Of a stretch of 64,000 nt of DNA, positions 26,386-43,532 are shown one piece after another. The notes under the pieces are model-generated. The model did no database searches. It was not told the origin of the DNA and saw only the letters and a program-made list of their open reading frames with translations. A program made the translations under genes and the position numbers. Origin of the DNA: Escherichia coli (lineage in GTDB: Bacteria > Pseudomonadota > Gammaproteobacteria > Enterobacterales > Enterobacteriaceae); assembly GCF_048403405.1 (NCBI RefSeq), contig NZ_CP183129.1. One strand, given 5' to 3'. Position 1 is the stretch's first letter. The number at the start of each line of letters is the position of its first letter.

Positions 26386-27288
26386 CTAACCACCCGTTTT
26401 CAGGCAATATTCCGTCGTAGCGTGGCGTTCGATCCAGCGGATCATTTTACCCGCGATGTCGATACCGGTGGTTTTTTCTATTCCTTCCAGCCCCGGCGAC
26501 GCATTCACTTCCATCACCAACGGCCCGCGATTAGCACGCAAAATATCTACACCAGCAACATCCAGCGCCATCGTTCGCGCGGCTTTTATCGCGATTTCAC
26601 GCTCCTGTGGTGTGATACTGGCGACGCTTGCCGCGCCGCCACGATGCAAATTGGAACGAAAATCGCCCTCTTTCGCCCGCCGTTCAATCGCAGCGACCAC
26701 TTCATCCCCAACAACCAGGCAGCGGATATCGCACCCTTGCGCCTCTTTGATATATTCCTGCACCAGAATATGCGCGTTCAGACCGCGGAAAGCGTCAATC
26801 ACGCTTTCCGCCGCCTGACGCGTCTCCGCCAGCACGACACCAATTCCCTGCGTGCCTTCAACCAACTTGACCACCAGCGGCGCACCACCGACCATGTCGA
26901 TTAAATCGCTGGTATCATCCGGCGAATGCGCAATGCCCGTGACAGGCAGGTCGATGCCCTGACGCGCCAGCAGTTGCATGGAACGCAATTTGTCACGCGC
27001 CCGGGCAATGGCGACCGACTCATTGAGCGGATAGCTCCCCAGCATCTCGAACTGGCGCAGTGCCGCCGTCCCATAAAAGGTAATGGCGGTGCCAATACGC
27101 GGGATCACTGCGTCAAAATGGGGTAACTTGCGGCCTTTGTAGTGAATAGAAGACGCCGCAGGATTTATGTTCATGTAGCAAGAAAGCGGATCAAGAATTT
27201 CAACCAGGTGACCGCGCTGTATAGCGGCTTCACGCAGCCGCTTACACGAATAGAGCGTTCCATCCCGGGACAATATGGCAATTTTCAC
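26386..27288 (-). CDS. rimK: ribosomal protein S6 glutamate ligase RimK (ATP-grasp)
   Basis: 300-aa translation [22 protein letters not shown]... Confidence 0.95.
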
Positions 27289-31197: not shown

Positions 31198-31276
31198 GCC
31201 ACTGCTTTTCTTTGATGTCCCCATTTTGTGGAGCCCATCAACCCCGCCATTTCGGTTCAAGGTTGGTGGGTTTTTT
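31198..31276 (+). ncRNA. rybB: RybB small RNA (sigma-E-dependent, Hfq-binding)
   Basis: 79-nt sequence gccactgcttttctttgatgtccccattttgtggagcccatcaaccccgccatttcggttcaaggttggtgggtttttt matches RybB as I recall it, with intrinsic terminator (ccaacc/ggttgg + U6); lies between ybjL and rcdA as in E. coli. Confidence 0.9.
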
Positions 31277-31295
31277 GTTATCTAAAATTTATCTA

Positions 31296-31832
31296 CTACC
31301 CTGCAACCCTCTCAACCATCCTCAAAATCTCCTCGCGCGATAGCGGCTTACGGTCGGTGACAAAATGCAGCGTCATCCCCTCAATAAACGCATCAAGCGC
31401 GCGGGCGGTTCCGGGTTCAAACCATTGTTCGAGCGTTTGCTGACTGCGCTGCATCCAGTTTTGCATTACCGTTTTTAATAGCGGTTTTCGGCTAGCCAGC
31501 GCGTAGAGCTGATACATCAGCTCCATATTATCCGGCGTTGCAACCTGTGAGCTGTAGATCATATCGGTGATAGCCTGGCATGCGCCTTGAGCATCACTAA
31601 CATCGCTAAAAAATGCCTGATATTGCCGGGACATGATCTCAGTAAAACTGCTGAACGCCTCCAGCAACAACTCATCAATTCCTGAAAAATAGTAGGTCAT
31701 CGATCCCAACGGTACCCCGGCAAGGGTAGCAATTTTGCGGTGCGTAACAGCATGTATTCCATAAAGTTTCACCGCCTCCAGCGTGGCCTGGATAATTTTT
31801 TCTCGCCGTTGCGGATCGTTAGCGCGACGCAT
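31296..31832 (-). CDS. rcdA: TetR-family transcriptional regulator RcdA
   Basis: From ATG 31832 ([22 protein letters not shown]...), 178 aa, N-terminal TetR HTH. Confidence 0.92.
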
Positions 31833-31852
31833 GTCATTTCCTCTCTCTGCAA

Positions 31853-31872
31853 TTGTGTACAAATGTACACAA
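31853..31872. promoter_or_regulatory. 20-bp perfect palindrome in the rcdA-ybjJ divergent promoter region; candidate TetR-type (RcdA) operator
   Basis: ttgtgtaca-aa-tgtacacaa: 9-bp arms, perfect dyad symmetry, 20 nt upstream of the rcdA start. Confidence 0.45.
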
Positions 31873-31915
31873 CCTTGCTAATGTTGTCTTCCCTCTTCTT
31901 ATTTTGACGTGATCT

Positions 31916-33124
31916 ATGACCGTAAATTCTTCACGTAATGCATTGAAACGCCGAACCTGGGCGCTGTTTATGTTCTTCTTTTTGCCGGGCCTGTTAATGG
32001 CGTCCTGGGCAACCCGTACGCCTGCTATCCGCGATATTCTTTCTGTTTCGATCGCTGAAATGGGCGGAGTCCTCTTTGGTCTGTCGATCGGTTCAATGAG
32101 CGGTATTCTCTGCTCGGCGTGGTTAGTGAAACGCTTTGGCACGCGTAATGTCATCCTGGTCACGATGTCCTGCGCATTGATCGGGATGATGATACTAAGT
32201 CTGGCACTCTGGCTGACATCGCCCCTGCTCTTTGCCGTTGGTCTCGGCGTCTTTGGGGCAAGTTTTGGTTCTGCGGAAGTGGCGATAAACGTTGAAGGTG
32301 CCGCCGTTGAGCGAGAAATGAATAAAACGGTTTTGCCGATGATGCACGGTTTTTATAGCCTGGGCACGCTGGCAGGCGCAGGTGTCGGGATGGCACTTAC
32401 GGCCTTTGGCGTTCCAGCAACGGTGCACATTTTATTGGCGGCGCTGGTAGGCATCGCGCCTATTTATATCGCCATTCAGGCAATCCCTGACGGTACGGGC
32501 AAAAATGCTGCCGATGGCACCCAGCATGGTGAAAAAGGCGTACCTTTTTATCGGGATATCCAGTTGCTGCTGATTGGTGTTGTGGTGCTGGCGATGGCCT
32601 TTGCCGAAGGTTCTGCCAACGACTGGTTACCCTTATTAATGGTTGACGGTCACGGTTTTAGCCCCACTTCCGGCTCGCTGATTTATGCCGGTTTTACCCT
32701 GGGGATGACCGTTGGACGCTTCACTGGCGGTTGGTTCATCGACCGTTACAGTCGCGTTGCCGTGGTTCGGGCCAGTGCGCTAATGGGGGCGTTGGGTATT
32801 GGGCTGATTATTTTTGTCGATAGCGCCTGGGTCGCTGGGGTGTCTGTTGTACTCTGGGGACTGGGTGCCTCGCTGGGCTTCCCGCTGACCATTTCTGCCG
32901 CCAGCGATACCGGCCCCGATGCACCAACCCGCGTCAGTGTGGTAGCAACGACCGGTTATCTGGCTTTCCTCGTCGGGCCGCCGCTGCTGGGCTATCTCGG
33001 CGAACATTATGGATTACGTAGTGCAATGCTGGTTGTACTGGCGCTGGTTATTCTCGCGGCTATTGTCGCGAAAGCCGTCGCCAAACCCGATACCAAAACG
33101 CAGACGGCGATGGAGAATAGTTGA
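31916..33124 (+). CDS. ybjJ: MFS transporter YbjJ
   Basis: 402-aa translation [25 protein letters not shown]... Confidence 0.93.
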
Positions 33125-33939
33125 TGAGCATTAAATTAATTGCGGTAGACATGGATGGTACTTTCTTAAGCGATCAAAAAACCTATAACCGTGAGCGGTT
33201 TATGGCTCAGTATCAGCAAATGAAAGCACAAGGCATTCGCTTTGTGGTCGCCAGCGGGAATCAATATTATCAGTTGATCTCTTTCTTCCCTGAAATTGCT
33301 AATGAAATTGCCTTTGTGGCTGAAAACGGCGGCTGGGTAGTGAGCGAAGGCAAAGATGTTTTTAATGGCGAGCTGTCGAAGGATGCATTTGCTACTGTCG
33401 TGGAACATTTGCTGACGCGCCCGGAAGTGGAAATTATTGCCTGCGGAAAAAATAGCGCCTATACACTCAAAAAATATGACGATGCCATGAAAACGGTGGC
33501 GGAAATGTATTATCACCGTCTGGAATACGTCGATAACTTTGACAACTTAGAAGATATCTTCTTTAAGTTTGGTCTGAATCTTTCCGATGAACTGATTCCA
33601 CAAGTACAAAAAGCATTACATGAGGCCATCGGCGATATTATGGTGCCGGTCCACACCGGCAACGGCAGCATCGATCTGATTATCCCCGGCGTACATAAAG
33701 CCAATGGCCTTCGCCAACTGCAGAAATTATGGGGAATAGACGACAGCGAAGTGGTGGTCTTTGGCGATGGCGGTAACGATATTGAGATGCTGCGTCAGGC
33801 AGGCTTTAGTTTTGCAATGGAAAATGCCGGCAGCGCGGTCGTCGCAGCAGCAAAATACCGGGCAGGCTCCAATAACCGTGAAGGCGTACTGGATGTGATC
33901 GATAAAGTTCTTAAACACGAAGCGCCATTTAACCAATAA
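33124..33939 (+). CDS. ybjI: HAD-superfamily Cof-type phosphatase YbjI
   Basis: From ATG 33124 ([15 protein letters not shown]..., DxDGT motif), 271 aa; start overlaps the ybjJ stop (TGATG). Confidence 0.92.
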   Translation: MSIKLIAVDMDGTFLSDQKTYNRERFMAQYQQMKAQGIRFVVASGNQYYQLISFFPEIANEIAFVAENGGWVVSEGKDVFNGELSKDAFATVVEHLLTRPEVEIIACGKNSAYTLKKYDDAMKTVAEMYYHRLEYVDNFDNLEDIFFKFGLNLSDELIPQVQKALHEAIGDIMVPVHTGNGSIDLIIPGVHKANGLRQLQKLWGIDDSEVVVFGDGGNDIEMLRQAGFSFAMENAGSAVVAAAKYRAGSNNREGVLDVIDKVLKHEAPFNQ

Positions 33940-34349: not shown

Positions 34350-35582
34350 TTACCCTTCGTGAGAATTTCCCATCTGTTTATCTTTTAAAAAGATAACCAT
34401 CAGCGACAGCCACAAAATTCCGTTGACAAGGTTGAAGAGATTAAACAGTCCGTTGCCCCCGTTCAGCCAGGCATGTTTGCTGATTTCAATACCGACGGTA
34501 AAGATCAGCATTTGCAGCATTCCCATCGCCGCAGAAACCGTACCTTTACTCATATCGCTGGCAAACAGAGTTAATCGCACCAGTCCCGCATTCGCCAGAC
34601 CAATACCGAAAGCATAAATACTTAACCCGGCGGTCATCCATAAATACGCGTGCGATGAGATAACCGTTGCCGCAGCAGCGACAAACAGACCAATCATAAT
34701 CGGCCAGCCGCCCATAATAATCAGCGAACGTACGGTGCGGCGCGAGGTCAGACGCGCTAGCAGCAAGTTACCCGCAATTAACGCCCCGAAAATAGGCACT
34801 TGCAGCAAGCCATATTCATAGCTGCTCAACTGCTCACCGGTAATGATGATAATCGGCGACTGGGCGATCCACGCCAGCAACGGCAGGCTAACGAATCCCA
34901 GCGCCAGCGCCCCCGCCACAAAGCGACCGTTCTTCAGCACCAGCTTATAGTCACGACCGAGTTCTTTCAGCGACAGTTTCTCGCCTATACGCGTGGCGGT
35001 TTCAGGCATGGCTCGTTGCAGACCGAAAAAGGAGATCGCTGCCAATGCGGCAAACAAGACAAACATCCCTTCCCAGGGCAGCACATGGATCCACGCCGCG
35101 CCCACCAGCGGGCCAAGTAGTGGAGCAATCAGCGCCACGTTCGCCATCAGCGCGGTGATCTTGATACAAACCGCCTCTTCGAAGGATTCCTGAATTGCGG
35201 CGTATCCCACAGCGCCAATGAAACAGAGGCTTATGCCCTGCAAGAAGCGCAACAGGGTGAATTGTTCAATGTTTTGCGCCAGTAATATTGCCAGACAGGT
35301 GATGATAAACCACACCACCCCCGCCAGCATCACCGGACGGCGACCAATACGATCCGACAGCGGCCCCAGGAGCCATTGTAAAAACATCCCGCCCGCCAGA
35401 TACGCAGTCATCGAAGTAGGAACCCAATCAATGCCCGCCTGATATTGTTCCACCACGGCCAACATACCGGGTTGAATCATATCGTTGCCGATATAGGTTG
35501 AAAATTCGTAAAGCACCAGACAGAGAGGGAAAAGTAACGCCTGACGTCCAAGCCTGGCACCGGAAACTAATTTATTTTGCAT
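34350..35582 (-). CDS. mdfA: multidrug efflux MFS transporter MdfA (Cmr)
   Basis: From ATG 35582 ([27 protein letters not shown]...), 410 aa. Confidence 0.95.
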
Positions 35583-40593: not shown

Positions 40594-40618
40594 AAGGGGG
40601 AGACGCTTTCTCCCCCTT
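40594..40618 (-). terminator. probable terminator downstream of bssR
   Basis: Perfect hairpin aagggggaga-cgctt-tctccccctt immediately after the bssR stop; flanked by T-rich sequence on the minus strand. Confidence 0.45.
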
Positions 40619-43504: not shown

Positions 43505-43532
43505 TTAGTACCCCTTGATTAAGGGGTACTAA
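43505..43532. terminator. strong hairpin between the antitoxin gene and convergent dgcI
   Basis: Perfect 12-bp stem ttagtacccctt-gatt-aaggggtactaa. Confidence 0.5.

Follow-up and report, generated by a model that had tools for sequence, protein, structure and literature searches.

The classic layout in the TetR family is that of tetR and tetA, which have divergent promoters with two tetO sites and in which the regulator represses its own gene. By its biology, the closest analogue of the locus studied here is EilR/eilO-eilA of Enterobacter lignolyticus ('Jungle Express'), where a TetR-family repressor is encoded divergently from an MFS pump (Ruegg et al. 2018, PMC6127294). The EilR-controlled pump gives tolerance to imidazolium ionic liquids, and the eilO arms are 2 bp apart and embedded in both promoters (PMC6127294). 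The eilO consensus is AAAGTTGGACACGTGTCCAACTTT, read as AAAGTTGGACA-CG-TGTCCAACTTT with 11-bp arms, and each spacer has two copies (PMC6127294).

The E. coli K-12 system has itself been described by Shimada et al. (2012, Microbiologyopen 1:381, PMC3535384), who renamed YbjK as RcdA. Genomic SELEX with purified RcdA rendered the ybjJ-rcdA spacer among the top targets (15 or 22 clones), and the 72-bp overlap of the clones includes the palindrome TTGTGTACAttTGTACACAA. The RcdA box was defined as TTGTnnACA. The ybjJ-rcdA spacer was the gel shift probe with the highest affinity for RcdA, and DNase-I footprinting with little RcdA gave a single clear protection on it. With much RcdA, the protein spread cooperatively over whole fragments, forming over 10 shifted bands as well as aggregates that were seen by AFM. 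Northern blots detected ybjJI mRNA only when RcdA was absent. In an rcdA mutant, single-copy lacZ fusions showed the ybjJ promoter up and the rcdA promoter markedly down, which was interpreted as repression of ybjJI and positive autoregulation of rcdA (PMC3535384). RcdA is not a purely local regulator because csgD, appY, ycgF, asr, ydeI and others were reported as further targets; sulA, a classic LexA target, was also among the SELEX hits (PMC3535384). The paper is internally inconsistent in that the running text places the palindrome and the 22 clones at tfaX-appY, whereas the legend to Figure 1 places them at ybjJ-rcdA. A second copy of the palindrome at tfaX-appY was rejected, as no match within 3 mismatches exists in MG1655 580500-584500. 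The legend is therefore right and the palindrome belongs to ybjJ-rcdA.

The window, which is the whole stretch of 64,000 nucleotides of E. coli DNA analysed here, has the same sequence at the same locus. Positions 31853-31872 are TTGTGTACAAATGTACACAA, read as TTGTGTACA-AA-TGTACACAA, and the published palindrome is the reverse complement of these positions, with no difference at the sequence level. The spacer between rcdA and ybjJ is 83 bp long and 100% identical to that of E. coli K-12 MG1655, where the repeat is found at 887383-887402. The inverted repeat is the already published and footprinted RcdA operator, and hence it is ordinary and known. The genes and the operator are listed below.

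31296..31832, minus strand: rcdA (ybjK), TetR-family regulator of 178 amino acids plus stop, from domains, PDB matches and annotation
31840..31843, minus strand: putative Shine-Dalgarno-like GAGG, 7 nt before the rcdA ATG, from reading of the sequence
31853..31872, no strand: RcdA operator, two RcdA boxes arranged 9+2+9 as TTGTGTACA-AA-TGTACACAA, from the repeat search, identity to MG1655 and the published footprint (PMC3535384)
31856..31869, no strand: invariant 14-bp operator core TGTACA-AA-TGTACA, the same in 80 of 80 species loci
31916..33124, plus strand: ybjJ, MFS transporter of 402 amino acids plus stop, first gene of the ybjJI operon, from annotation; repressed by RcdA (PMC3535384)
33124..33939, plus strand: ybjI, HAD phosphatase co-transcribed with ybjJ, from annotation mapped from the 100% identical strain TUM14771

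The initial annotation named the flanking genes as a TetR-family rcdA and an MFS ybjJ, and domains, PDB matches and RefSeq annotation all agree. The minus-strand protein contains TetR_N and TetR_C_31, is annotated rcdA in RefSeq and matches the RcdA entries 5x5i, 7acl, 7acm and 7aco in the PDB (E about 1e-115); the plus-strand neighbour ybjJ is an MFS_1 transporter. Three of these entries (7acl, 7acm and 7aco) match the ligand forms in RegulonDB v12, where RcdA-Tris and RcdA-TMAO are listed as inactive with reference to Pietrzyk-Brzezinska 2022. The EilR entry 5VL9 is absent from the PDB sequence hits for RcdA at E<=1e-5, thus RcdA and EilR are not close homologues. The annotated RcdA protein begins MRRAND, and the open reading frame listing has an in-frame TTG upstream of its ATG, inside the repeat. 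The stop of ybjJ and the start of ybjI overlap by one base, which fits a ybjJI operon.

A 2-kb segment of the locus, with rcdA, ybjJ and ybjI annotated, has matches that cover 80% or more of it in 5,421 of 5,426 complete E. coli genomes. This segment (31200-33200) has at least 99% identity in 47 E. coli records alone and 95-99% identity in the other 5,382, and for the 83-bp spacer about 44% of the E. coli records are in the 95-99% band. The coding regions of rcdA and ybjJ in this strain thus represent a minority allele, whereas the spacer equals that of K-12. The small RNA RybB is encoded at 31201-31279 on the plus strand (full-length match to Rfam RF00110, 104 bits), flanked by ybjL and by the 3' end of rcdA. 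The genes rybB and rcdA (stop codon 31296-31298) are convergent, and rybB has an equivalent place in MG1655.

The rcdA-ybjJ locus resembles TetR/tetO in that a TetR-family gene is divergent from a transporter gene, with a palindromic operator in a short spacer (79/80 species). The operator is also predicted here to overlap both promoter cores, and the transporter is derepressed on loss of the regulator. Unlike TetR/tetO with its two operators, rcdA-ybjJ has one. RcdA also differs by its reported positive autoregulation, its many distal targets and its cooperative spreading. The site had been described as a classic TetR-type operator controlling regulator and transporter together; a single site does control both genes, but the reported effect on rcdA is positive and not the negative autoregulation of the classic case. 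The resemblance to EilR/eilO includes the pairing of a TetR-family regulator with an MFS transporter, the 2-bp centre of the operator and the ionic-liquid tolerance that likewise follows from loss of rcdA. The two cannot be regarded as the same system, since beyond the arms and the 2-bp centre the rcdA-ybjJ operator is unlike AAAGTTGGACA-CG-TGTCCAACTTT.

The initial annotation called the site a perfect 20-bp palindrome. The repeat search shows that the arms (31853-31861 and 31864-31872) are 9 nt each and 100% complementary with 2 nt between them, but the central AA has no self-complementarity. The symmetry therefore extends to 18 of 20 positions, and the site is better described as a perfect 9+2+9 inverted repeat. 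The next bases outward, A31852 and C31873, do not pair, so the symmetry ends there. The self-palindromic hexamer TGTACA is found in both arms, which makes the core a direct repeat as well, with 8-bp spacing, and the centres of the half-sites are 11 bp apart, about one helical turn. The distances given earlier hold: 20 nt (31833-31852) separate the repeat from the rcdA ATG (31832-31830, minus strand), and the 44 nt to ybjJ is correct as an offset, with 43 nt between the repeat and the ATG at 31916.

The repeat pattern is single in the window even when 3 mismatches are allowed, with 0.01 expected. For the generic class (perfect repeats, arms of 9 nt or longer, 2-nt spacer), 0.25 occurrences are expected in a 64-kb window, and one or more turned up in 23% of the simulated windows. 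The repeat by itself is only suggestive because the generic 9+2+9 class is not rare by chance. Its significance comes from the conservation across species and from the published binding data.

Conservation was studied in 80 loci of Enterobacteriaceae, one genome per species, found by a scan with the RcdA protein alone (identity 67-98%) and covering Escherichia, Citrobacter, Salmonella, Klebsiella, Raoultella, Enterobacter, Kluyvera, Kosakonia, Leclercia and other genera. A divergent ybjJ homologue was present in 79 of these; the exception (L052) has just 497 nt of sequence upstream of rcdA. The repeat was found upstream of rcdA in all 80 with 0-4 mismatches. The core at 31856-31869 (TGTACAAATGTACA) is invariant, including the orientation of the central AA, and C31870 is retained in 79 species, while the bases further out, at 31853-31855 and 31871-31872, differ between species. 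At 31855, 33 species have G and 47 have A, opposite a C that is retained, and this pair (31855:31870) is broken, with A opposite C, in 46 of the 80. The two outermost pairs are broken in 12-20 species. No compensatory change in the arm pairs was found across the 80 species, although breaks affect 12-47 of them depending on the pair, and the perfect 9+2+9 structure is retained in just 24. This pattern is what would be expected for a protein operator with tolerant outer contacts, unlike an RNA stem.

An alignment (MAFFT) of the 69 short spacers shows a single conserved block, tT.TGTACAAATGTACAca..cTTGcTA.tGTTGTC at about 31852-31888, and the rest cannot be aligned. Within it, a second conserved stretch (31874-31888) lies adjacent to the core. 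The core TGTACA-AA-TGTACA together with the adjacent TTGCTAnTGTTGTC block gives a tighter definition than the published TTGTnnACA unit. In 78 of 79 loci the repeat lies 42-46 nt from the ybjJ ATG, whereas it is 19-23 nt away from rcdA in 69 loci and 53-120 nt away in the other 11. In these 11 long-spacer species, unrelated insertions of about 35-100 nt have entered the stretch that leads from the repeat to the rcdA ribosome-binding site, and the ybjJ side is unchanged. The fixed distance to ybjJ and the variable distance to rcdA show that the operator module is anchored on the ybjJ side and that the flank close to rcdA behaves as a free 5' leader.

The insertions were seen in loci L021, L022, L024, L030, L038, L048, L057, L058, L061, L063 and L077, which belong to Salmonella, the Klebsiella oxytoca group, Raoultella and a few others. 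A common polymorphism of E. coli affects the outermost base of the repeat: strains Trh52 and SCU-108 (L083 and L084) have A31872G together with C31873T, and the last pair of the dyad is thereby lost. An assembly named 'Chryseobacterium sp. 18061' (L066) has a typical Enterobacteriaceae rcdA-ybjJ locus with a spacer nearly identical to that of Citrobacter sp. 18056 (L062), and this record is probably mislabelled or contaminated.

All sigma-70 hexamer pairs in the spacer were enumerated and then filtered by conservation, which left one candidate promoter in each direction with the following elements.

31856..31861, plus strand: predicted ybjJ -35 TGTACA, inside the operator, from hexamer enumeration; invariant
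31876..31884, plus strand: predicted ybjJ extended -10 TGcTAATGT with a 17-bp spacer, from enumeration; the block is found in the 69-sequence alignment and in the 11 long-spacer species
31885..31890, minus strand: predicted rcdA -35 AAGACA (GACA conserved), from enumeration; absent in Salmonella
31862..31867, minus strand: predicted rcdA -10 TACATT with a 17-bp spacer, inside the operator, from enumeration; invariant including the central AA/TT orientation

The candidates score 7/12 plus the extended -10 TG for ybjJ and 8/12 for rcdA. A standard promoter scan requiring at least 9/12 matches gave none in the spacer and hits solely inside the rcdA open reading frame. Two alternatives with 8/12 matches were discarded: TTGCTA-19-TATTTT for ybjJ, where the -10 region is not conserved, and TTAGCA-18-CACAAT for rcdA, where the -10 is not conserved either and A31852, which supplies its final T, is found in 11 of 80 species. 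The literature search found no mapped transcription start sites for rcdA or ybjJ. The supplements of Kim 2012 do not mention rcdA, ybjJ or ybjK, and the Shimada 2014 paper on constitutive promoters does no more than name RcdA. The GACA of the predicted rcdA -35 is lost in Salmonella, and the rcdA leader or promoter may differ in the lineages that carry insertions.

The spacer sequences fit two predicted divergent sigma-70 promoters that would overlap fully, each -10 abutting the -35 of the other (31856-31890). Transcription would then begin near 31891 for ybjJ and near 31855 for rcdA. The second conserved stretch would be explained by this arrangement because the predicted ybjJ extended -10 and the predicted rcdA -35 fall there. 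The fixed orientation of the central AA points to a directional constraint, such as that of a promoter, since a symmetric dimer cannot sense orientation. It would be accounted for by the predicted rcdA -10, because TT on the rcdA strand makes up positions 5 and 6 of TACATT.

In our opinion the repeat is very probably the primary, highest-affinity operator of RcdA, located in the predicted core of the ybjJ promoter where bound protein would exclude RNA polymerase, with rcdA expression coupled to its occupancy. Within this reading we infer the promoter hexamers, the start sites, the single dimer per site and the steric exclusion. As the half-site centres are about 11 bp, or one helical turn, apart, one RcdA dimer would bind along a single face of the DNA, with its two helix-turn-helix domains in neighbouring major grooves. 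The operator covers the predicted ybjJ -35 TGTACA and part of the 17-bp spacer upstream of the extended -10, and bound RcdA would exclude RNA polymerase and keep the ybjJ-ybjI operon off; loss of RcdA derepresses it. The same 20 bp overlaps the only conserved candidate -10 of rcdA (TACATT), which would couple rcdA expression to the occupancy of the site. The most likely mechanism is that a single RcdA dimer sterically keeps RNA polymerase off the ybjJ promoter. However, simple occlusion by one dimer may be incomplete given the cooperative spreading of RcdA at higher concentration.

A different possibility is that the repeat is an AT-rich palindrome that arose by chance and has no function, and that RcdA acts on ybjJ from elsewhere in the spacer. 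Chance would indeed give 0.25 perfect 9+2+9 repeats in a window of this size, and 9-mers resembling the RcdA box with one mismatch are not in excess (10 in the window compared with 12 in shuffles). The 14-bp core is nevertheless invariant in 80/80 species amid a spacer that cannot be aligned, and both a DNase-I footprint and the overlap of the SELEX fragments have been published on this very sequence (PMC3535384), which leaves a chance origin with next to no probability. The repeat might also act in RNA, as a hairpin in the 5' leader of rcdA or ybjJ that stabilises the mRNA or serves as attenuator or terminator. Either strand can fold into a stem of 8-9 bp (-12.7 or -13.5 kcal/mol, z about -4), and the EilR paper (PMC6127294) remarks that mRNA can be stabilised when a palindromic operator lies at the start site. 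The stem is AT-rich, however, neither strand has a T-run after it, and the terminator scan gave no hit there. The pairs are broken without compensation across the 80 species, the flanking GCAA/TTGC pairs are not conserved and, if the conserved promoter model holds, each of the two transcripts would include just half of the repeat. A role as RNA structure is accordingly highly unlikely.

The third alternative is that the site mainly serves another regulator with a similar motif, and that RcdA binding is secondary. LexA, CRP and TyrR are the candidates, with the consensus CTGT-N8-ACAG for the LexA box, half-sites TGTGA/TCACA normally 6 nt apart for CRP, and TGTAAA-N6-TTTACA for the TyrR box. The repeat contains GTGT-N8-ACAC, which resembles the LexA box, and the SELEX hits of RcdA include sulA. 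The site lacks the outer C and G that are essential in a LexA box, though, as it is GTGT-N8-ACAC here and begins with ATGT in 47/80 species. CRP half-sites would be 8 nt apart instead of 6, and the TyrR box does not fit the invariant core. Moreover, the site strictly co-occurs with rcdA in 80/80 loci and is footprinted by RcdA (PMC3535384), and it is extremely unlikely that another regulator is the main user of the site.

The comparative footprint raises the puzzle of how RcdA, a TetR-family protein whose site is 20 nt away from the rcdA start codon, could increase its own transcription. Any start site for rcdA puts the operator over the -10 or the start site, or downstream of them, because the repeat ends 20 nt from the ATG and lies just upstream of the GAGG. 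Classical activators do not act from such positions. An operator over the -10 and the start of rcdA predicts negative autoregulation, and it is awkward that the published single-copy lacZ fusion shows the opposite. One possible explanation, which we consider doubtful, is promoter competition: the core would double as the -35 of ybjJ and the -10 of rcdA, only one RNA polymerase could be accommodated at a time, and the opposite signs would follow. When RcdA is removed, the ybjJ promoter would out-compete the rcdA promoter and rcdA expression would go down. If so, the 'positive autoregulation' would be an indirect effect of one repressor site with no true activation, and the invariant orientation of the central AA (80/80) would be the signature of the dual use. 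Cooperative spreading of RcdA at high concentration may also contribute to the positive autoregulation. The paper on a transcription factor titration library (Parisutham 2022) contains localisation of RcdA-mCherry only and no autoregulation data.

The experiments proposed in the initial annotation had in fact been done. Binding of purified RcdA to the dyad, for which a gel shift was suggested, is published through SELEX, gel shift and footprint, and an rcdA deletion alters both reporters, with ybjJ-lacZ up and rcdA-lacZ down (PMC3535384). The discovery value is consequently small: the site, its binding protein and the effect on both genes were published in 2012, and the annotation names RcdA. 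The additions to that work are modest and consist of the tighter core, the anchoring to ybjJ, the model of overlapping promoters and the tension over the sign of the autoregulation.

When RcdA no longer controls the operator, the YbjJ pump is derepressed, and tolerance of imidazolium ionic liquids has recurrently arisen in this way. Work after 2012 agrees with repression of ybjJ by RcdA. Loss-of-function alleles of rcdA (SNPs, IS insertions, amber codons and a deletion) have repeatedly been selected for this tolerance, and RcdA is described in these studies as a regulator of the MFS pump YbjJ (PMC5691611, PMC6174563). Loss of RcdA control is also a route to resistance against growth inhibition by phenformin, as the rcdA deletion was the most phenformin-resistant mutant in a biguanide screen (PMC9873799).

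The window has 9 distinct inverted repeats that are perfect over arms of 9 nt or longer and have a spacer of up to 6 nt, compared with about 2.4 expected. Apart from the operator, a perfect AT-rich 9+1+9 palindrome, TTATCTTTTAAAAAGATAA, is located at 34378-34396, which on coordinates mapped from TUM14771 falls within the 3' end of the minus-strand gene mdfA. Seven further perfect repeats, mostly G+C-rich, are found at 1897-1918, 18703-18725, 19589-19608, 21273-21295, 26787-26809, 40595-40617 and 43507-43530 and are probably terminator or REP-like hairpins. In the segment annotated artJ, 19009-19020 (TTGTGTAAACAA) has two overlapping 9-mers on opposite strands that resemble the RcdA box with one mismatch. 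This pair is probably coincidental because such matches are no commoner than expected by chance.
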